64,000 nt of DNA from Candidatus Zixiibacteriota bacterium. GTDB lineage: Bacteria > Zixibacteria > MSB-5A5 > UBA10806 > 4484-95. A model generated the notes under the pieces. It ran no database searches. It was not told where the DNA came from and saw only the letters and a list, made by a program, of their open reading frames with translations. The stretch is taken from positions 35,739-99,738 of the forward strand of contig JAOZPT010000002.1 in NCBI GenBank assembly GCA_029932605.1, given 5' to 3'. Shown piece after piece: positions 250 through 54,141 of the stretch. The position numbers were made by a program, and so were the translations under genes. Numbering within the stretch: position 1 is the first letter of the stretch; each line of letters opens with the position of its first letter.

Positions 250-3200
250 CTATTTAATCAAAGCTACTTTTACAATTACATTTTTCTTTATGTCCGGAGA
301 GCTGGCTTCCAGCCTGGCAAAATACACACCTGAAGCAAATTCCGAGCAATCCCAAGAGACTTCGTTTACTCCCCCTCGAGGAGACGAGCCTTTCAGTTCA
401 TCTACCAGTTCACCCGACATATCGAATATCTTAATATTCACCTCGGCTTGGCGATCGACATAATATCTAAAACAAGTCATATCAGTAGCGGGATTAGGAT
501 AATTGTAAACCTCGGCCTCAGGTAAAAAACCCTCAGCAATCGATATATCCTTATCAAAAGCAGGCGATAGATAACATCTATGGCCGATACCGCCACCAGC
601 CATGGGCCAGGGAAGGTTAATGCTGTCAGTTGAGGTTTCAAGATCCCAGACAGAGACGAATCCAGCGCTGTCCATTGCTGCCACCTCGATATCGCCATCA
701 GCGTCAATGTCACTTACTATCGGCGCCATCGTAATCCTTGTTGAGGTTGGCAGAGGAAACCCACCAAGCATATCGCCATGATAATTGTAACACGCCAACC
801 CGCCATCCGGAAGGCAAACAAGTATATCGGGGTTGTTGTCGGCATCAACATCCGCTATCACTGTTTCCACTTTTTGCATTGCCCAAGACCAACTTTGGGG
901 TAAACGAACAGGGAAACCATCAAATAATACCTCCAGATTATTATATACATACACACAGTCATTACCGCCGGTAAAAATTATCTCAGGATAGCCATCGGAA
1001 TTAATGTCAGCCAATGATGGTGGGCCCGGGCTTTCTATATTTATCGTTTTAATCGTCCCCCTCTGGCCATTATAAATACATAGATAATCGCCCACCGTAA
1101 CGACGGCATCATCGAAGCCATCACGGTCGATATCACCACAGACGATACCGATAACATGGCCATCCGGTAAGCTTATAGTATGTTGCTGGTCTGCATCGTT
1201 CTCACCGTGGTTACGAACATAAAGATTGAAATTATCGGAACTGCCATAAACAACAAAGGTCATTTCATCAGATATGGCAATATCTATGGGGATATCATCG
1301 AGATCATCAATAAGAGTAACGTCAATAGTATCTATATCTGAGATATCGATAAGGTGCAAAGAAGAATCATCGAACCCCACAATAAGCTCATCCTTATTGT
1401 CATTGTCGATATCATAAGCTACCGGACCAGCAGTGAGCGATGCTGACAACGTTTCAGATACCAATAAATCTGCCAAGGAATCAAGCGGTGTTCGATCGTA
1501 TCCCTCAAATATATATAACTTGTTCAAAATATCACAGCAGGCTACTTCCAAGGAATCATCACCATCAAAATCACCAGCTATAAGATTGCCTGTGATATTT
1601 GTATCTAATATGGCAAAAACCGGCAAGACATATATTAGCGAATCGCCATCGAAACCGGGAATTAAAAGGCCGGAGCTGGTGTCCATAACCGGTGAACCAT
1701 CGGGATTCACTGCTATTAGAAACTTTCCGACACCGGTTAATATTTCATTCTGGCCATCCGAATCGATATCCAAAACCAATAAGCCATCACAATTATCACC
1801 AAGATCGGGAAATCCCATTACCGGAAAACCATCCTGGTTCCAGCCGATTGAGATATCACAATACATAAGAGTGTCCGTTTCGGTAATACCGGTTATGGAT
1901 ATATGTGTATCAGCACCGAGATTGGAGCGAGTATCAGGATTAGTTGAGGGGGTAAAATCGGTATTATTGCCGATTTTGAAAAAATCGTCATCAGTGCCAT
2001 AACCGCTAAAATAGTTATAATCTCCCAAATCAACTATACCATCTGCCTCCACCACTGAAACGAAACGCCTGTTTGGGTCCCATTGAAGGGTATTTTGCAG
2101 GAAGTTATTACCACCTTCTCCAACATAATCCATATAAGCTACCGCTTCATCGACATGCCATATCAACACACCATCCCCGGGCAACAACCGGTCGTATTCG
2201 CCGGTCAGGACTTTATATAATTCGTTATTATCATAATAAGCCCAACCTGGGCCAAGGATAACACCCGTTGTCGAATCGGCTATAATTGCATTAGGTATAG
2301 ATGGATCATAATGAATATAATCGAAATCAGCATATCTCTGACGATTTTCTATAAGGAAATATTCCATTTCGGAAATCGGCACTTTCACAATTTCATCGTC
2401 GTGATAGTATTGTTCAGCGGCTGAAATAACGACATTCTGTCCATCAGCGATTTCCCTGACAGCAGAAAAGCCCAAATAAGCACGAGACCAGGCATCGGGA
2501 TAAACGGGTAAGACACCTGTTACAAACGGGCCATCGTCCTCGAAAATTATACTTACTGAAAGACCGTTGTTATCCATAAGAGAAAAATCCCCAACCGCAG
2601 TTTGAAAATTGTAGGTGTTATAGAGGTCAACAAGGCCAAGTTGATGCCCGAATTCATGAGCTAAAACAGCGTTTAACACACCAACCCGATTATCCTGGGA
2701 CACAGTCTCCGGAACGATTAAACCATCGGGTATATCCGTCCAGCCGGCACCATTTGAATCGACGCATACCGGTTCAGCCAACCTTATAAAACCTGTCCAG
2801 AGGTCAAATGGTGTGTCATTGATAAAGGCGATATTGTTCTGCTGGTCGCTACCGGCATGAAATAAAATTACCGATTGATAGTCAGAGAAGTTTATTTCAG
2901 GAGCTAATGTATCCGCTAATTTTACAGCATCTTTAAAAAAGCGTTCAAGTCTAACTACGATACTATCCATTCCCCATGAGGTCTCAGATCCATAATAAGA
3001 TATAGGATTAGGCAATCTAAAAGATAATGTTTCTTCCTGAGGATAAATATCCCATTCAAGGTTAAGTGTTTTATCAGAGACAAACCACCAGTAATTATGA
3101 AGAGCCTCCAGGTGTGATGAGAAATACGATGTGTTGTGAGGAGCCGGGTCAAAATCATGCCCTTCTTCCTCCACGAATTGGTCAAGTGAACGAAGGTCAA

Positions 3201-46272: not shown

Positions 46273-46830
46273 TTAATGTTGATAATCCATTCGCTGGCGT
46301 ATTTTTTCCATAGCTTCTTTACCTGCCAGTTTTTCACATAGATATAGACCCAGATCGATAGCTGAGGTAACACCCCCGGCGGTGATTAAATCACCATCGT
46401 CGACAATTCTTTGGTTAACGATAAAGTCGCAATATTTTTTAAGTTCATTCTGTGCCAGAGGATGGGTAGTTGCCTTTCTACCATTCAGGAAACCAGCTGC
46501 TCCCAATAGCAGAGACCCGGTACATACAGAAACCTTGAACCTACATCCTCGAGCAGTCTTAAGCCATTTCAGAAATTCAGTATCGTCAATCAGGTTTCTT
46601 GAACCAGGACCACCAGGCACTATGACCATATCATAGCCTCTAAGTGAATCAACCACTTTAGTCGGTCCTAAACTTAGGCCGGTACTATCAGTTACCTTCC
46701 TGAAAGTCGAACAAACATCCCAGTGCAAATCTTTAATAAAGTTCATGGTTTTGAGCCGAACCACTGAATCATAAACTCCAATGAAATCCAGAGTGGTCAT
46801 ACCGTTGTAGATAATAAAAGCTATTCTCAA
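46273..46830 (-). CDS. DJ-1/PfpI family protein
   Basis: Seen in sequence: MRIAFIIYNGMTTLDFIGVYD... and a nucleophile-elbow Cys context (VCTGSLLLGAAGFL). 185 aa. Confidence 0.8.
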   Translation of the reverse strand: MRIAFIIYNGMTTLDFIGVYDSVVRLKTMNFIKDLHWDVCSTFRKVTDSTGLSLGPTKVVDSLRGYDMVIVPGGPGSRNLIDDTEFLKWLKTARGCRFKVSVCTGSLLLGAAGFLNGRKATTHPLAQNELKKYCDFIVNQRIVDDGDLITAGGVTSAIDLGLYLCEKLAGKEAMEKIRQRMDYQH

Positions 46831-47075
46831 TTTATCCTCTCTGATATGTTTTCCTTTTCTTTAATGATACATGAAACCCAAAAATTCATATTTCCGATTT
46901 AGATTTACGAAAATATAATTGTCAAAGTTGCTTTAATTTTAAGTTAGAGAAGATAATATAGTTGTTAGTTATGGCATTATATTAACGAAAGCTTTATGAG
47001 AACGAATAAATAATTTTAGAAGAGTTATTTCATTTTGATGTTTATCCAGGAACATTTTGAGATTCCAACGTTCAT

Positions 47076-47105
47076 AAAAAAACTCCCGGCCGAGATGACC
47101 GGGAG
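47076..47105 (-). terminator. Rho-independent terminator after the outer-membrane barrel gene
   Basis: Seen in sequence: a perfect 7-bp stem, ctcccgg-ccgagatga-ccgggag (47083-47105), followed on the minus strand by a U7 run (complement of 47076-47082). It lies ~25 nt downstream of the stop at 47130. Confidence 0.65.
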
Positions 47106-47129
47106 TGGTTACGTCACTTATTTTATGGC

Positions 47130-47951
47130 CTAAAGCCCATAGGTCACGCGAGCACCAATATCGATGGTCTGAAGTGTATTTGTTCCACCAAGATTGTACA
47201 GCATTTTAAATTTTAGACCAACATCCGGGTTGATCTGGTAACAGAATGAAGGACCAAGTTTATACCATTGCTCTTTGGTGTCGGGCAAACTATTGCTGTC
47301 CCATTTCCAATCCTGACCGAAACCCGATTCAAATTCTAAAGAGGCACGGTAGTCTTTGTTAAACCAATATCCGAAAGCACAATTAAACCATATCTCGTCA
47401 CCTGGTTTTAGGTTGGTGTCGCTGTTTTCCAGTCTGAGGTTGTAGTAGATCGAAGTCTGTATATGATAGGGATTTTTATACCAGGTATAAGCAAAACCTG
47501 GACGAATATTTACCTGGCCTGTGCCAAGACCCTTATTATCATCACCTGTTGGCAGATCAGACCAGAACCACATCGATAGATAATTACCCTTATTGTAATC
47601 GTCTATAATCCAGTATGCTGCTGAAATCTGGATATCGCCAAAACCACTTTCAGAATTTCCCGAGCCTTGGCTGTATGACATAAACGGCATTACAACACTA
47701 ACAGACCAACGATGGTCGTTAAACATGCTATAGTAGGTCGGTCTCAACATGAAGCCAAAACCGTTCCAGGTGTCACTGAATTCTTGCTTATCGCCATTCT
47801 GATCATAGTAATTTGAAGCGGTTGAGAATCCAGGATAACCCTGGATATAAACACCGACAGAATAGGGCTCATTATCAAAATCATCAACATCAGCGAAAGC
47901 TGAACCGACAAGCAAAATAACACCTAACGCTGCTAAAATTAAAATTCTCAT
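47130..47951 (-). CDS. Outer-membrane beta-barrel protein (MetA-pathway/transporter-like family)
   Basis: Seen in sequence: signal peptide, aromatic-rich alternating beta-strand pattern, C-terminal -VTYGL. 273 aa. The family call is an inference. Confidence 0.5.
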   Translation of the reverse strand: MRILILAALGVILLVGSAFADVDDFDNEPYSVGVYIQGYPGFSTASNYYDQNGDKQEFSDTWNGFGFMLRPTYYSMFNDHRWSVSVVMPFMSYSQGSGNSESGFGDIQISAAYWIIDDYNKGNYLSMWFWSDLPTGDDNKGLGTGQVNIRPGFAYTWYKNPYHIQTSIYYNLRLENSDTNLKPGDEIWFNCAFGYWFNKDYRASLEFESGFGQDWKWDSNSLPDTKEQWYKLGPSFCYQINPDVGLKFKMLYNLGGTNTLQTIDIGARVTYGL

Positions 47952-48480
47952 TTTATTTCCTCCATCAATTTATTGATGCGATCAATATCTTTTTGTATTG
48001 AAATGATTCAAACTTGGATATAAGCTTTTAGGGCATTATCACCTCCTTGTGACCCATTGGGTATCTTGTATATGGTTAACTGGTCATCTATAAATGTATT
48101 ATCGATGTTTTTAATAATAAATTTACAATATTTAAATAAATAATAACCAAATAAACCTTAAAAGTCAGTATAACTGTCACAACTAATTATTTTGCAAAAT
48201 GATACAGTGATAATAACAATGTAAGGCAAGCCTAAATTTTTTTGTTAACCTTTTGTTTTTATTCAGGTTATGTTTTTTTTCGATATTTTAGGAAGATGTT
48301 TTCAAGGAAAAATGGTGTTTAAAAATGAAAAGGTCAAATATTTTTCAATAAAGTACCCCACAGTAAATATAATACACTAGCCTTACAATAAAATAAAAAG
48401 AGTAATTAAGGTGTTACAGTTCGTTAAATTTCGGTTTTGTTGCTCATCAAGGTATTTTTTAGTTTTATCTATTTTGCAGA

Positions 48481-48514
48481 AAATAAAAAAAGGCGCTCCT
48501 GAATGAAGAGCACC
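48481..48514 (-). terminator. Intrinsic terminator for the small basic protein gene
   Basis: Seen in sequence: on the minus strand, stem ggugcuc-uucauucag-gagcgcc (one G-U pair), then UUUUUUUAUUUU (complement of 48481-48491). Confidence 0.5.
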
Positions 48515-48523
48515 TTAGAATGG

Positions 48524-48649
48524 TCACCTTTTCTTTTTGTGGAGGTGACAATACTTTGCAGGTGGTGTTACCATACGTTTACATCTTTTCCCCGTCGATG
48601 TCTTTCCTGCACAACGGACTTTTCTCCTGGGCTTCTTTTTAGTTGGCAT
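48524..48649 (-). CDS. Small basic Cys/His-rich protein (41 aa; putative zinc-ribbon-like), MPTKKKPRRKVRCAGKTSTGKRCKRMVTPPAKYCHLHKKKR
   Basis: Seen in sequence: ATG preceded by a perfect AAGGAGG SD with a 6-nt spacer. Cysteine/histidine pattern C-x9-C-x10-CH-x-H. An upstream promoter and downstream terminator were identified. Below the ORF-track length cutoff. Confidence 0.55.
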   Translation of the reverse strand: MPTKKKPRRKVRCAGKTSTGKRCKRMVTPPAKYCHLHKKKR

Positions 48650-48701
48650 TTAACCCCTCCTTAAGTTAAATGATGCCTCAGAATCCTCTGCCATTCTGTT
48701 T

Positions 48702-48728
48702 TTTATATCAAATACAATTTTATGTCAA
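48702..48728 (-). promoter_or_regulatory. Sigma70-like promoter (TTGACA-15/17-TATAAA) for the small basic protein gene. The ~50-nt 5'UTR carries a cagaau/auucug hairpin
   Basis: Seen in sequence: minus-strand TTGACA (complement of 48723-48728) and TATAAA (complement of 48702-48707). The 5'UTR cagaauggcagaggauucug forms a 6-bp stem. Confidence 0.4.
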
Positions 48729-49206
48729 CAATAAAAAAATTTTTTACATATATTTTTTCATGGTTTTACCGGTTAATCACTTTCGGTCTTTTTAAGAACT
48801 TAAAAGTCGTAAAGAACTATCTCCCCGAATATCGATAAATTTATACTAATTTTAACCAAAAGATAGGTTACCTTTTTAAGATTGATTCAATATCAAATAT
48901 CGCTTCTATAAATTCCTTCAGTTAACCCGACTGAAATAAAAATACCAAAAGTAATGATGAATCTATTAAAAACGTCCTGCTTTTATAGATGTGACATAAT
49001 TGGAATACTTAACGCAAAATACTGGGCAGTACTGAGGATTCATCATGACAAAAAAGAATATTAGCATTAATTACATAAAATTGATATATTATTTACGTGA
49101 ATGGCTCAAGTTGTCATGTGCCATTTAGTTTTCATTTAACATCGTGTAACCCCCGGAAGTATTCTGTGCAGGAAATATCCTGTTAAAAACATAATCTTAG
49201 CAAAAC

Positions 49207-49236
49207 TTGACATTTCCTCACAACAATATGTATTTT
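49207..49236 (+). promoter_or_regulatory. Putative sigma70-like promoter for the moxR/Bat operon
   Basis: Seen in sequence: TTGACA (49207-49212), an 18-nt spacer and TATTTT (49231-49236), ~65 nt upstream of the moxR ATG with GGAGG SD. Confidence 0.35.
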
Positions 49237-49301
49237 GTTTTTTGTCGATGGGAACATCAGGCACAAAAAATATGTAAAAACTTGAAAAAATCGGAGGTTT
49301 A

Positions 49302-50282
49302 ATGGATCCACAGATAGAGGAAATTCAAAAAGTTGTTGACAGACAGGGAGCTTTTGTTAGACGGCTGACAGATGAGATTGGCCTGGTTATTGTTGGCCAG
49401 AAGTATATGGTGGAAAGGCTTCTAATTGGCCTTTTAGCCGACGGCCATATCTTAATCGAAGGTGTACCGGGGTTAGCTAAAACTCTGTCAGCTAAGACCC
49501 TTTCTGATGCTGTGCAAACCACCTTCAAACGTATTCAGTTTACACCTGATTTATTACCAGGTGATTTAACCGGCACCATGGTTTACCAGAACGGTAAATT
49601 CATAGCTCGCAAAGGTCCAATTTTTGCCAATTTTATTTTGGCCGACGAGATAAACCGTGCTCCAGCTAAAGTCCAATCGGCATTACTTGAAGCCATGCAG
49701 GAACGTCAGGTCACAATTGGAGACCAAACATATCAATTGCCCAAACCTTTTCTTGTATTAGCCACACAGAACCCTATTGAGCAGGAAGGGACCTATCCGT
49801 TGCCGGAAGCTCAAGTTGACAGGTTCATGCTCAAACTGAAGATCGATTACCCTGACCGTGATGAGGAATTGAAAATCCAGGAGCGTATGGCTGTTAAGGA
49901 TGTGCCACACATAACCCCTGTCATCACCCCCGAGGAAATTTTGGCAGCCAGAGAGGCTGTTTATAATATCTACATAGATGAAAAGGTGAAAAACTATATC
50001 GTCGATATAGTAATGGCCAGCCGTAACCCCAAAAAGTATAATATCGACATAGAGGATTTAATTGCTTATGGAGCCTCACCGAGGGCTACGATTTATCTTA
50101 ATATTGCAGGACGAGCTCATGCCTTTTTACAGGGCCGGGCATATGTAACACCAGATGACATCAAACTGATCGGCCCAGATATTCTTCGCCACCGAATCAT
50201 ACTAAGTTATGAGGCTGAAGCGGAGGAACTAACCTCCGATGATATTGTGCAGAAAATCTTTGACGGTGTTGAAGTTCCTTAG
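49302..50282 (+). CDS. moxR: MoxR-family AAA+ ATPase
   Basis: Seen in sequence: Walker A (GVPGLAKT), Walker B (ILADEINRA) and sensor regions. 326 aa. Confidence 0.9.
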
Positions 50283-50285
50283 CAT

Positions 50286-51167
50286 ATGCTTCCACGCGAA
50301 CTTTTCAAGAAAATTAAAAAAATCGAGATTAAGACATCTCGGTTGGTCAACGATGTCTTTTCCGGTGAATACCATTCGATTTTTCGTGGCCGGGGGATGG
50401 AATTCTCCGAAGTACGTGAGTACATCTCCGGTGATGATATACGCACCATAGATTGGAACGTAACCGCCCGTTATAACCATCCCTACGTAAAGATCTACCG
50501 TGAAGAACGTGAGCTCACGGTAGTGCTTGCGGTTGACCTATCAGGCTCCGGCTCTTTCGGAAGCCTCCAGAAATTACGCAGGGAGATATCGGCCGAGCTT
50601 GCTGCTATTTTAGCATTCTCAGCCGTTAAAAACAACGATAAGGTTGGGCTTTTATTGTTTACTGATAAAATCGAAAAATTCATACCCCCAAAAAAAGGGC
50701 GTTTTCATGTGCTTCGGCTAATACGCGAGGTGCTATACTTTAAACCATCCGGAAAACGAACCAACTTAGCCGGAGCAATAGATTACCTCCTACGGGCAAT
50801 CAAAAAGAAAAGCGTGGTATTTCTAATATCCGACTTTTTAGATGAAAACTTTTTCAAGCCACTCGGTTTGGCCTCCAACAAACATGACCTTATCGCGGTG
50901 GAGATATATGACCCACTGGAAAGACGGATACCCGATGTTGGACTCGTCAATTTGGTTGACCTTGAATCGAATAAACATGTTCTTATCGATTTCTCCAGCA
51001 AAGATAATACTCGTACACTGGCACTGAAAGCTGAAACCATGAGAGCAAAACTGCATGAGTTTTTTCGGCGGCATAACATCGATATGATCGAATTAAGTAC
51101 CCATAAGGACTATACCCAGCCGCTTTACAGGTTTTTTGAACAACGTGCTAAACGTATACGGCGATAA
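50286..51167 (+). CDS. DUF58 (vWA-like) protein partnered with MoxR
   Basis: Seen in sequence: DUF58 hallmark (SGEYHSIFRGRGMEFSEVREYISGDDIRTIDWNVTAR). 293 aa, immediately downstream of moxR. Confidence 0.85.
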   Translation: MLPRELFKKIKKIEIKTSRLVNDVFSGEYHSIFRGRGMEFSEVREYISGDDIRTIDWNVTARYNHPYVKIYREERELTVVLAVDLSGSGSFGSLQKLRREISAELAAILAFSAVKNNDKVGLLLFTDKIEKFIPPKKGRFHVLRLIREVLYFKPSGKRTNLAGAIDYLLRAIKKKSVVFLISDFLDENFFKPLGLASNKHDLIAVEIYDPLERRIPDVGLVNLVDLESNKHVLIDFSSKDNTRTLALKAETMRAKLHEFFRRHNIDMIELSTHKDYTQPLYRFFEQRAKRIRR

Positions 51168-51179
51168 ACTTGAAATGCA

Positions 51180-52151
51180 ATGATTGGAAAAATTTTTAAA
51201 AAATTAACGATATTTTTTATTCTAATAGCAGTTTCTGTCATCGCACAGAATGCTCCGTTATCGGGAGATGAAAACCAAGACAAGGCTCCCATCAGGTTTG
51301 ATATCACCGTCCCTCAGGACAGCCTGACTATCGGAGACGATATCATAATCCACATTAAAGCAGATTACCCTTCTAATATCAAGGTAACACCACCATCAGG
51401 TCAAATACCAGACGAGGTGTTCGTTTTAAAATCAGGTCCGGAGGTGAAATCAAAAACCCGCAAAGGACGAAAATACGATGACTACACGTACGTGCTTACG
51501 GCATTCACAACCGGTGTTCTCGAGATACCCTCCTTTGAATTTTTTTGGTACGATTCGTTGGGCAATCAAAATGTGGTCTCTGCGCCAACAAAATCGATAT
51601 ATATCAAAAGCGTATTGCCAGCGGATACCAGCGGCCTTGATATAAAAGATATAATCGGACCAAAAGCTCTACCTAAACGACGATGGCCATATATCTTGAT
51701 AGGCATTTTAATAACAGTCATTATTATCGTAGTATATCTACTGCATAAACGAAAAATGAAAACTATTGAAATGCCCAAAGTACCCATTGAGCCACCATAT
51801 GATATCGCTATTAGGGAGCTGACCATACTTAAGGAGAAAGATTTACCGGGCAAAGGAAAAATAAAACTATATTATATCGAATTATCGGATATAATAAGGC
51901 GTTATATTGACGGGCGTTTTAATATCGATGCCGTGGAGGCTACTACCTATGAATTAAAGAAAGTTTTAAGACATCCTGAACTTCCAAAAGAAAAAATTTC
52001 AGATGCATTGAGTTTTTTAACCAGGGCCGACATGGTTAAATTCGCTAAGTTTATACCTTCGCCTCATTTAGTAAGAGGAGATTACGAGCTGGTAAAAAAA
52101 TTTATTGTCGAAACTAAACCGGTGGAAAAAGAGGTGGAAGTGGTAAAATGA
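51180..52151 (+). CDS. Bat-operon hypothetical membrane protein (DUF4381-like position)
   Basis: Seen in sequence: signal peptide plus a central TM helix (WPYILIGILITVIIIVVYLL). Operon position is between DUF58 and batA. Confidence 0.5.
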   Translation: MIGKIFKKLTIFFILIAVSVIAQNAPLSGDENQDKAPIRFDITVPQDSLTIGDDIIIHIKADYPSNIKVTPPSGQIPDEVFVLKSGPEVKSKTRKGRKYDDYTYVLTAFTTGVLEIPSFEFFWYDSLGNQNVVSAPTKSIYIKSVLPADTSGLDIKDIIGPKALPKRRWPYILIGILITVIIIVVYLLHKRKMKTIEMPKVPIEPPYDIAIRELTILKEKDLPGKGKIKLYYIELSDIIRRYIDGRFNIDAVEATTYELKKVLRHPELPKEKISDALSFLTRADMVKFAKFIPSPHLVRGDYELVKKFIVETKPVEKEVEVVK

Positions 52152-53140
52152 TAAGGTTTGCCCAACCATATTTCCTTTTACTTCTCTTACTTCCCATTGC
52201 TTACCTGCTTTTATATTATTTCAAGAGCTATTTAAAACCACCGGTAATGGGGTATTCCGAAACGGGGTTACTGGATCGACCCAAGCTCACTTTTAAAACA
52301 GCTTTTTACCAAGCGTTACCCGCTTTAGAAGCGTTGGCAATGGCTTTAGTGATAATTGCTGCAGCCAGACCGCAGTCAGGACATGGCGAGCGTCAGGTTT
52401 TCACCGAGGGTGTAGACATAATGCTTGTGCTTGATACTTCCGGCAGTATGCAGGCAGAAGATTTCAAACCCGAAAACAGGCTGGTTGTATCAAAAAATGT
52501 CATAAGAAACTTCATCAAAGGACGGCAGGGTGATAGAATAGGTTTGGTGGTTTTCGCCCGTCAGGCTTTCACTCAATGCCCTCTGACAAACGATTATCAG
52601 CTTCTGTTACAATTCTTAAAGGAGGTTGATTTCGGTATGGTGGACGACGGCACAGCTATAGGTCTGGCTCTCCTAACTGCCGCCAACAGACTGATCTCAT
52701 CCGATGCAAAAAGCAAAGTAATAATTCTTCTCACAGATGGCGTTAACAACGCTGGCCAGATAGACCCCATAACAGCAGCCAAAGCTATAGCCACCCTCGG
52801 AATTAAAACCTACACAATTGGCGCTGGTAAACATGGCATGGTTGATTTTCCCGTTTATGACCCACTATTTGGCAAGCGTTATGTCAAAAAGATGTCACAG
52901 ATTGACGAGGAAACTCTAAAGGAAGTTGCCAGCATCACCAACGGAAGATTCTTCAGGGCAGAAAACAGCCAAACCTTGCAGGACATCTATGACGAGATAT
53001 CAGTTATGGAAAAAACAAAAATAGAGGTTAAGGAGTATTACCGTTATGAGGAGTTATATGCTGGTTTTTTGGCACTTGGGTTGTTATTGATAACTGGAAA
53101 ATTTATTTTAAGTTCAACTGTATTGAGGAGTCTCCCATGA
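52148..53140 (+). CDS. batA: vWA domain protein BatA
   Basis: Seen in sequence: N-terminal TM helices, then a vWA MIDAS motif (DTSGSM). 330 aa, with a 4-nt overlap with the upstream gene. Confidence 0.8.
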   Translation: MIRFAQPYFLLLLLLPIAYLLLYYFKSYLKPPVMGYSETGLLDRPKLTFKTAFYQALPALEALAMALVIIAAARPQSGHGERQVFTEGVDIMLVLDTSGSMQAEDFKPENRLVVSKNVIRNFIKGRQGDRIGLVVFARQAFTQCPLTNDYQLLLQFLKEVDFGMVDDGTAIGLALLTAANRLISSDAKSKVIILLTDGVNNAGQIDPITAAKAIATLGIKTYTIGAGKHGMVDFPVYDPLFGKRYVKKMSQIDEETLKEVASITNGRFFRAENSQTLQDIYDEISVMEKTKIEVKEYYRYEELYAGFLALGLLLITGKFILSSTVLRSLP

Positions 53141-54141
53141 GGTTCTTACACCAAGATGTTCTTTACTTGCTTTTTTTACCCGTCGTATTGTTTTTTATAT
53201 ATATCGTTGGCTCAAAGTTGTCCAAAAAACGTCTTTCCAAACTAGGCGGTTTACAGATAAAACAGATGGCTCAACGTAGTGTCTCAGAAAGCCGCCGCAG
53301 GTTTAAATTTGCCTTAACAATGGTTGGCTTAACCTTGATGATTGTAGCTCTAGCTCGCCCTCAATATGGCTCTGAGCTTATCAAGGTTAAATCTACCGGA
53401 ACCGAGGTCATGATTGCTCTTGATGTATCCCTGTCGATGCTGGCAGGTGATTTTTATCCCTCTCGGTTAGATAAAGCCAAACGCCAGATATCAACGGTTA
53501 TTGATAATCTGCCCGGGGAAAGCATCGGCCTTATAGTGTTTTCCGGACAGGCTTTTGTGCAATGCCCGCTGACAGTGGACCACAGCGCCCTCAGGATGTT
53601 TCTTGATATCGTTGATGTGGGAACTATATCGGATACCGGCACTGATATAGAAAAAGCAATTGAAAAAGCCGCTGAGAGTTTTTCAGAGGAAAGCAAAGCG
53701 GACAAAGTGCTTGTAATATTCACCGATGGTGAGACCCAGGAAGGCGATCCCGTTTCGACGGCTAAGAAATATAAAAGCCTGTTTAAGATTTATACCGTTG
53801 GAGTTGGCACTCCTAAAGGTGAACCGATACCCATTCGTGGTGCTGATGGTTCAATTGAGGGCTACAAGAAAGACAAAAACGGAGAACTCGTAATATCTAG
53901 ATTAAATGAAGACCTTCTCATGGAAATCGCCACAGCTTCAGGTGGTATGGCTTATCGTTCCACACCGGGTGAACAGGAGCTGAAGTCTTTAGTAAAATGT
54001 ATTAAAGGTATGAAGAAAGGTGAAACCGAGAGTAATTTCCGCCGTCTTTATGAGGAAAAATTCCAGTATTTCTTAATACCGGGGATTTTATTTATCAGCC
54101 TGGCAATGTTTATCGGTCAGAGAGGAAAACATGCGTTGTAA
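53137..54141 (+). CDS. batB: vWA domain protein BatB
   Basis: Seen in sequence: TM helices, a vWA MIDAS motif (DVSLSM) and a C-terminal TM. 334 aa, with a 4-nt overlap. Confidence 0.8.
   Translation: MRFLHQDVLYLLFLPVVLFFIYIVGSKLSKKRLSKLGGLQIKQMAQRSVSESRRRFKFALTMVGLTLMIVALARPQYGSELIKVKSTGTEVMIALDVSLSMLAGDFYPSRLDKAKRQISTVIDNLPGESIGLIVFSGQAFVQCPLTVDHSALRMFLDIVDVGTISDTGTDIEKAIEKAAESFSEESKADKVLVIFTDGETQEGDPVSTAKKYKSLFKIYTVGVGTPKGEPIPIRGADGSIEGYKKDKNGELVISRLNEDLLMEIATASGGMAYRSTPGEQELKSLVKCIKGMKKGETESNFRRLYEEKFQYFLIPGILFISLAMFIGQRGKHAL

Follow-up and report, generated by a model that had tools for sequence, protein, structure and literature searches.

The longest intergenic region in a 64-kb stretch of Candidatus Zixiibacteriota DNA (the whole stretch analyzed here, termed the window) is a gap of 1350 nt at 47952-49301, which separates a gene for an outer-membrane protein (OMP) from a Bat-like operon. 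This gap carries a real gene, missed by annotators, and purifying selection acts on the protein sequence of its 41-amino-acid product (MPTKKKPRRKVRCAGKTSTGKRCKRMVTPPAKYCHLHKKKR, encoded on the minus strand). The product is a free-standing, Lys-tailed variant of an already known class of CCCH knuckle, and zinc binding is predicted from its invariant Cys3-His set and from homology to CCCH fingers. With modest confidence, we read it as a small protein that would bind nucleic acids in a zinc-dependent, sequence-independent manner. With this gene, phyla known only from metagenomes gain a small protein that is conserved, probably highly expressed and part of a family in which no member bears a name so far.

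A missed gene of 41 codons

The gap has a GC content of 0.30, compared with 0.40 for the window as a whole and 0.40-0.47 for the flanking genes. A scan between 47951 and 49302, with both neighbors as delimiters, found no open reading frame (ORF) of at least 100 amino acids, and the 1.35-kb region looks empty because gene callers skip a 41-codon gene. A first-pass annotation made from the sequence alone had described a long AT-rich gap holding a self-contained gene for a 41-residue protein, and this description is borne out by the length, the composition and the reading frame (Table 1). Once the gene is counted, the gap becomes two pieces of 572 nt (OMP side) and 652 nt (Bat side), in line with the lengths of the window's other long intergenic regions (643 and 523 nt). 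The encoded protein has a computed isoelectric point (pI) of 11.48, in agreement with the earlier prediction of a value above 11. It contains 17 Lys or Arg residues and no Asp or Glu, for a net charge of about +17, and it has no signal peptide.

The gene is monocistronic, with its own promoter, a strong Shine-Dalgarno (SD) sequence and its own terminator. All three signals had been proposed in the first-pass annotation, and all three are present. The SD is a perfect AAGGAGG, the promoter joins TTGACA to a TATAAA (48707..48702) that is made an extended -10 element by the TGn before it, and the G-U-containing terminator with its U-tract forms a hairpin (48516..48490) of -15.2 kcal/mol with a z-score of -3.61. 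A promoter scan that allowed spacers of 16-18 nt overlooked this site because the spacer is only 15 nt. The hairpin that had been ascribed to the 5′ untranslated region (UTR) does exist, but at -8.5 kcal/mol (z -1.49) it is no better than that of shuffled sequence. The corresponding z-score in a related contig, L070, is -1.43, with different pairing, and the hairpin was rejected as a regulatory element.

A sequence search with the peptide recovered 25 relatives of 37-69 residues, and a profile search for small proteins returned 288 clusters (40-98 residues among the 120 matches listed). In the profile searches, most relatives came from metagenome-assembled genomes (MAGs) labeled Zixibacteria or Ignavibacteria. 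The named small relatives all derive from metagenomes or MAGs, and none is assigned to a Pfam family. Scanning a genome collection in which each species is represented by one genome gave 60 loci, whose record titles read Zixibacteria in 28 cases and an Ignavibacteria-type label in 15, with one Calditrichota, one FCB group and the rest unclassified. None of these 60 loci shows synteny with the window.

Selection on the protein is seen in how these sequences vary. The columns invariant in the family are V11, R12, C13, T17, K21, R22, C23, K24, R25, P30, K32, C34, L36 and H37, of which the four predicted ligands (C13, C23, C34 and H37) are constant across 26 proteins and 59 loci. Among the 59 loci, the codons for Cys and His vary synonymously, and the entropies of the three codon positions are 0.555, 0.551 and 1.425, such that the third is 2.6-fold higher than the first and second. 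A 30-residue core is 70-89% identical among relatives labeled as different phyla. Two or three paralogs that keep the four ligands occur in some MAGs (L027/L034/L036 in CBFDEC01, L004/L055 in CAYQDB01 and L017/L022 in CBDUQR01), and some paralogs bear the Lys-rich extension at the C-terminus instead of the N-terminus.

Expression signals recur across the family as well. A GGAGG-type SD precedes the start in all tabulated family loci except one, an exact TTGACA is found upstream in most, and 37.5% of family loci have an upstream promoter-like score of 10 or more, compared with 0.7% of control segments. The TTGACA-15-TATAAA layout of the window is also present at the homologous loci L006, L009, L010 and L036. 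Upstream gaps of family loci measure 22-808 nt, and the 3′ ends are structured, with T-runs.

The related contig L070, whose OMP protein is 74% identical to that of the window, carries an ortholog (MPAKKKARKKVRCAGKTTAGKRCKRLVSPPAKFCHLHKGRR) at the matching position and in the matching orientation. Between the two genes, 13 codons differ synonymously and 10 non-synonymously. L070 retains the -35 element, the extended -10 element and a 26-nt SD block identical to that of the window, and its terminator keeps a perfect stem of 13-14 bp despite changes in both arms (z -4.44). Conservation of the gap is partial: homology to L070 spans 48745 to 47952, from the promoter of the small gene to the start of the OMP gene, and ends there, with the Bat side not kept. 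On the far side L070 carries another gene, and thus it is the OMP gene, not the Bat operon, with which the small gene travels.

Comparison of six near-identical strains (window 46302-53282 versus L001 and L064-L068) revealed no single-nucleotide polymorphism (SNP) in the 126-nt gene, one in 47952-48523 and seven in 48650-49301. The last region has about 10.7 SNPs per kb, whereas the flanking genes have about 3-5, although all of these counts are small. A metagenome scan with the OMP protein and look-ups of exact proteins gave only contigs at least 99.3% identical to the window, which are uninformative on conservation.

Existing annotation accounts for how the gene was missed. Five other assemblies of the same species (L064-L068, >99.7% identical) have no gene call in the gap, nor does the NCBI MAG annotation, and in L070 the gene caller took an antisense 84-aa frame at 745-999(-) over the true 41-codon gene at 760-885(+). 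One 725-nt ENA contig does carry a call of the 41-aa gene. Although the absent calls and the preferred antisense frame could be taken to mean that the ORF is a chance frame that is never translated, the probability of this is negligible, and the idea can be regarded as effectively refuted by the family alignment (hundreds of homologs with invariant Cys and His), by codon entropy concentrated in the third position and by the comparison with L070, with the conserved SD, promoter and terminator and the ENA call adding to the case.

A predicted CCCH knuckle of the DUF5763 class

The conserved ligand pattern is C-x9-C-x10-C-x2-H, which corresponds to a single CCCH knuckle. The C-x9-C-x10-CH-x-H pattern noted in the first-pass annotation is correct as read, but H35 is not conserved (His, Tyr or Ser in the family alignment). 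The accompanying proposal of a zinc ribbon does not hold: a ribbon has two CxxC (or CxxH) knuckles, each on a β-hairpin, whereas here there are no CxxC pairs and the ligands are spaced by 9, 10 and 2 residues. No second copy of this Cys/His motif occurs elsewhere in the window.

We compared both the peptide and its family with established domain models. The window peptide matches WRC (PF08879) at residues 22-39 with 15.8 bits and an E-value of 0.011, short of the cutoff of 28.6. It is unmatched by DUF5763 (PF19067; cutoff 26.3 bits) at E-values up to 10 and by zf-primase (PF09329; gathering cutoff 28.8 bits), and NCBIfam yielded only a weak, sub-threshold match to the GvpO N-terminal model. 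Among the 26 family members, DUF5763 matches 14 (best E-value 4.6e-4), WRC matches 18 (best 0.0026) and zf-primase matches nine (best 0.002), all below threshold.

Searching 1.84 billion representatives with the family hidden Markov model (HMM) retrieved 427 clusters, and in 101 of the best 150 of these the exact motif is present in 2-7 copies. The longer proteins retrieved by the family profile pass the DUF5763 cutoff and are bona fide members of that family. These longer relatives also match WRC, zf-TRM13_CCCH and zf-C3Hc3H, and P0038 alone matches zf-primase, above threshold. When the family (A1) was aligned by hhalign with 89 DUF5763-type repeats (A2), a probability of 99% and an E-value of 2.4e-18 were obtained over 30 columns, with the caveat that the A2 repeats were drawn from matches to the A1 profile. 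The C/C/C/H ligand columns are invariant in the 89 repeats. On the basis of these profile alignments, the knuckle of the small protein is judged to be homologous to DUF5763-type repeats.

DUF5763 itself is a family of unknown function that consists mainly of tandem repeats in Bacteroidota-type proteins. It shares with the window protein the same knuckle spacing and the T..G..CKR and (Y/F)C..H signature. However, DUF5763 proteins usually have 2-7 repeats and often a signal-peptide-like N-terminus or an Endonuclease_NS domain, whereas the window protein is one free-standing knuckle with Lys-rich tails and without a signal peptide. Another arrangement is found at L053 7376-10021, on a contig labeled uncultured archaeon, where a membrane protein of ~880 aa ends in one knuckle (IRCKAKTKDGKRCKRITHNVDGYCDVH) that sits after a hydrophobic segment near the C-terminus.

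An AlphaFold2 (AF2) model of the protein, in which zinc is not included, has short strands and a C-terminal helix, with a mean confidence score (pLDDT) of 82 that rises to 85-90 over residues 11-40. Foldseek returned four matches in the PDB, all of them chains of the MCM10 internal domain (3EBE C and A, 3H15 and 7Y01). These superimpose with a root-mean-square deviation of 0.9-1.2 Å over 29-32 columns at 25-28% identity, with probabilities up to 0.93 and TM-scores of 0.59-0.69 normalized to the query; the E-values of 1.2-7.6 are not significant, and the query is a predicted model. The comparison was made at the level of whole chains. The same fold occurs in a viral structure library as an appendage of giant-virus HNH endonucleases and RING ligases and of a myovirus 'WRC protein'. 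Neither the peptide nor profiles of the family and of the DUF5763 repeats gave a meaningful match in sequence searches of the PDB, and we found no paper on DUF5763, on a link between these Pfam families or on small zinc proteins of Zixibacteria. At 41 residues, the protein offers a simple model, accessible to synthesis, for the ligand of the widespread DUF5763/WRC-type CCCH knuckle.

Proposed binding of nucleic acids

We infer nucleic-acid binding because of fusions to endonucleases, a structural likeness of the model to zinc finger 1 (ZnF1) of MCM10 that falls short of significance, and tails that resemble those of H1/Hc-type proteins. Among the 30 long relatives scanned, the knuckle is fused to a DNA/RNA non-specific endonuclease domain in 10, and this domain is the only recurrent globular fusion partner. 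The fold shared with giant-virus HNH endonucleases, noted above, points the same way. The arrangement suggests that the DUF5763 domain on these NucA-type endonucleases serves as a nucleic-acid tether. MCM10 ZnF1 is a CCCH finger that aids the binding of both single- and double-stranded DNA without sequence preference (PMC5333062). In that eukaryotic replisome protein the finger acts in fusion with an OB-fold, whereas the window protein has no OB-fold or other domain. Family members carry variable (KKKVA)n tails, tail length ranges from ~10 to ~90 residues, and one member matches the histone-H1-like HC2 model weakly. Tails of this type, up to ~90 residues in many family members, recall chlamydial Hc1 and Hc2. 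However, the tail of the window protein has 11 residues and Hc1/Hc2 have no zinc knuckle, and the similarity is one of composition.

In the mechanism that we propose, residues 11-40 would fold around one Zn2+ ion bound by C13, C23, C34 and H37, giving a small β-hairpin-plus-helix knuckle of the class that includes the DUF5763 repeats. Contacts to the phosphate backbone of nucleic acid, either single- or double-stranded, would then be made by this knuckle together with the tails rich in Lys and Arg at both termini, and would not depend on sequence. The protein would be a presumably abundant factor, either associated with the nucleoid in the manner of H1/Hc-type proteins or bound to RNA or the ribosome. 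The first-pass annotation had likewise pointed to a zinc-binding protein associated with nucleic acids or ribosomes. Its nucleic-acid component gains from domain homology and the fusions, but no ribosomal match was found.

The fused NucA-type endonucleases are P0034, P0047, P0061, P0075, P0082, P0114, P0126, P0132, P0145 and P0167, and another is encoded at L063 9203-10093. NucA-type endonucleases carry one to three DUF5763 knuckles, mostly at the C-terminus. Many NucA-type knuckle endonucleases have an N-terminal hydrophobic segment, a feature for which the ten P-proteins listed here were not checked.

Several observations weigh against a general nucleic-acid-binding role. The window peptide is below every Pfam threshold, and the named relatives, all from MAGs of uncultured organisms, are annotated as 'hypothetical protein' save for one mislabel (P0226, a Lys-rich knuckle protein of 76 aa that JGI calls 'adenylate kinase', evidently an annotation error). 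Many DUF5763 proteins have signal-peptide-like N-termini, and their usual setting may be extracellular. The core identity of 70-89% exceeds what one would expect if the protein simply coated DNA, and hints at a specific conserved partner, which would favor a place in the ribosome. Furthermore, neighboring genes give no functional clue. When the neighbors at 59 loci were clustered, no family-wide partner gene emerged; the clusters reflected only synteny within sub-lineages and a C-terminal domain that recurs promiscuously in secreted proteins.

One such sub-lineage is marked by gatD/gatE-like genes (Asparaginase plus GatB_N), which are divergent from the small gene at L003, L024, L026, L035 and L037. 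Further gatD/gatE-adjacent loci are L040, L045, L047, L050 and L057, and at these ten loci the upstream distance from the small gene is ~0.4-4 kb. In this sub-lineage the small gene is often followed by a gene for a secreted protein with a common C-terminal domain of ~170 aa. The adjacency to gatD/gatE probably reflects synteny of the lineage and no link in function.

It is also possible, though we hold it doubtful, that the protein is a core, abundant and lineage-specific component of the ribosome or the nucleoid in Zixibacteria, Ignavibacteria and Calditrichota, built as a minimal free-standing CCCH knuckle of the type seen in MCM10 and the plant GROWTH-REGULATING FACTORs (GRFs). Such a role would explain why the core is 70-89% identical across relatives with different phylum labels while annotation misses the gene or calls the antisense frame. 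If the protein truly belongs to the core of the ribosome or the nucleoid, it would represent a new lineage-specific building block. Conversely, if it is a generic nucleic-acid binder, the gene would be a useful but unsurprising annotation fix.

A narrower proposal is that the protein belongs to the ribosome of these lineages, with its knuckle and basic tails inserted into ribosomal RNA (rRNA) as in bL36, bS22 and bL37. The small ribosomal proteins (bL36, bL31, bL32, bL33, bS22 and bL37) do resemble it in their ~40 residues, extreme basicity, zinc-type motif, stand-alone genes and strong expression signals, and in this family the GGAGG SD is near-universal and TTGACA promoters are common. The core identity between relatives labeled as different phyla and the ~10 loci divergent from gatD/gatE-like tRNA amidotransferase genes would also fit this role. 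We nevertheless consider it unlikely. The Cys/His spacing differs from that of the small ribosomal proteins, no ribosomal-protein model in Pfam or NCBIfam, bS14 and bS18 included, was matched at E-values up to 10, and PDB sequence searches with the peptide and the family profile matched no chain of any solved ribosome; the earlier impression that bL31-bL36 are not matched is thereby confirmed in all three databases. Among the loci examined, the gene never lies in a ribosomal-protein operon, and its neighbors vary. Tails that range from ~10 to ~90 residues, the presence in several MAGs of two or three paralogs with all cysteines kept, and the joining of homologous domains to nucleases and not to translation proteins likewise argue against a ribosomal role.

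The WRC domain has a Cys/His spacing identical to C-x9-C-x10-C-x2-H. It also resembles the window protein in placing a C3H zinc finger beside a basic stretch and in the R-C at its start, and weak WRC matches were obtained for most family members, as described above. WRC has been described as the DNA-binding C3H zinc finger of plant GRFs (PMC10707037). From these resemblances, one could view the protein as a regulator that recognizes specific DNA sequences in promoter elements, and as a minimal WRC counterpart in bacteria. However, we regard this as highly improbable. The WRC scores are all under the gathering cutoff, the window protein starts with V-R-C and not W-R-C, it has no QLQ domain and its host is bacterial. 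Moreover, no conserved neighboring gene presents itself as a target, a knuckle of ~30 residues with low-complexity Lys tails leaves little surface for specificity, and the recurrent domain partners are non-specific nucleases.

The remainder of the gap and its flanking genes

Table 1. Features of the gap and its borders in the window.
Feature	Positions	Strand	Basis
Phenol_MetA_deg-family OMP gene	47130..47951	-	OQX92434.1
OMP-gene upstream region	47952..48479	-	L070 homology and conserved boxes
Two-codon mini-ORF ATG-CCC-TAA (M-P-stop)	48036..48028	-	Read in window
SD-like AAGGAGGTG box, perfect anti-16S match	48048..48040	-	Invariant in 7 orthologous OMP leaders
Conserved TCGATAAT box	48105..48098	-	Invariant in 7 orthologous OMP leaders
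Promoter-like TTATCA-16-AATAAT	48213..48186	-	Hexamer scan
Intrinsic terminator with an 11-bp stem that includes two G-U pairs, a 5-nt loop and a U7AUUUU tail	48480..48516	-	
Coding sequence of 41-aa basic protein (putative CCCH zinc knuckle), stop included	48524..48649	-	ORF, family alignment and ortholog
Putative 5′ UTR, ~45-50 nt, weak 6-bp hairpin	48650..48700	-	Transcription start inferred
SD AAGGAGG	48656..48662	-	6 nt 5′ of ATG
Promoter: -35 TTGACA 48728..48723, 15-nt spacer, extended -10 TGaTATAAA 48710..48702	48702..48728	-	
AT-rich spacer unconserved in L070	48746..49301	.	Homology ends at 48745
Bat-operon promoter-like site TTGACA-18-TATTTT	49207-49236	+	Hexamer scan
MoxR SD GGAGG	49293-49297	+	Read in window
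MoxR-type AAA ATPase, first gene of Bat-like operon	49302..50282	+	OQX92433.1

Outside the 41-codon gene, the gap is ordinary divergent regulatory DNA. The first-pass annotation had seen no convincing ORF in the remaining ~1.1 kb, which agrees with the scan described above, and had suggested that this DNA may encode small RNAs (sRNAs). The presence of one or more sRNA genes would suit a long, AT-rich intergenic region in which sigma-70-like hexamer pairs number 12 (7.3 ± 2.8 expected) and in which the OMP side holds conserved boxes, but we find it very unlikely. An Rfam scan of 47800-49450 gave nothing above threshold, with the best score, 27.7 against a cutoff of 40, going to the eukaryotic family SNORD46 by chance. 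No second terminator was found in the gap, the sole terminator-like site being that of the small gene, and a z-score scan of folding singled out only this terminator. RNAalifold found no consensus pairs in seven orthologous OMP leaders, and the Bat side is unconserved in L070 and SNP-rich among strains.

The seven leaders are those of the window, L070 (1236-1293), L072, L073, L074, L075 and L078, whose OMP proteins are 52-74% identical, and in all of them the TCGATAAT and AAGGAGGTG boxes are 53-57 nt apart. With L071 as an eighth leader inspected, ATG-NNN-stop follows the AAGGAGGTG box in four of eight. These boxes resemble signals that serve the OMP gene at the level of DNA or of ribosome contact, and do not resemble an sRNA. 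The AAGGAGGTG box together with the mini-ORF could be a standby site or a start-stop regulatory site.

Within the gap, searches for direct repeats and for tRNA or tmRNA genes were negative, the latter as part of a scan of the window. Inverted repeats in the gap are short and rich in AT and probably arose by chance. PHROGs and PADLOC produced nothing significant. Comparison of both non-coding segments with all fetched loci and the window by blastx and blastn also returned nothing.

The proteins encoded on either side of the gap have the same sequences as OQX92433.1 and OQX92434.1, which belong to 'candidate division Zixibacteria bacterium 4484_95'. The consecutive accessions suggest that this record has no annotated protein between them. 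The downstream operon, which starts at 49302(+), has the composition MoxR/DUF58/VWA.

On the Bat side, ~550 nt have no counterpart in L070, the one related contig available. Seven of the eight SNPs in the gap lie on this side, at 48721-48994, with six of them inside 48746-49301. The segment absent from L070 is bracketed by two overlapping, imperfect inverted repeats at 48738-48769 and 49265-49291 (19 nt and 18 nt, each 89%), and a search of the window and the loci revealed no second copy. These repeats may be a product of chance in AT-rich DNA, or may mark the ends of an inserted element.

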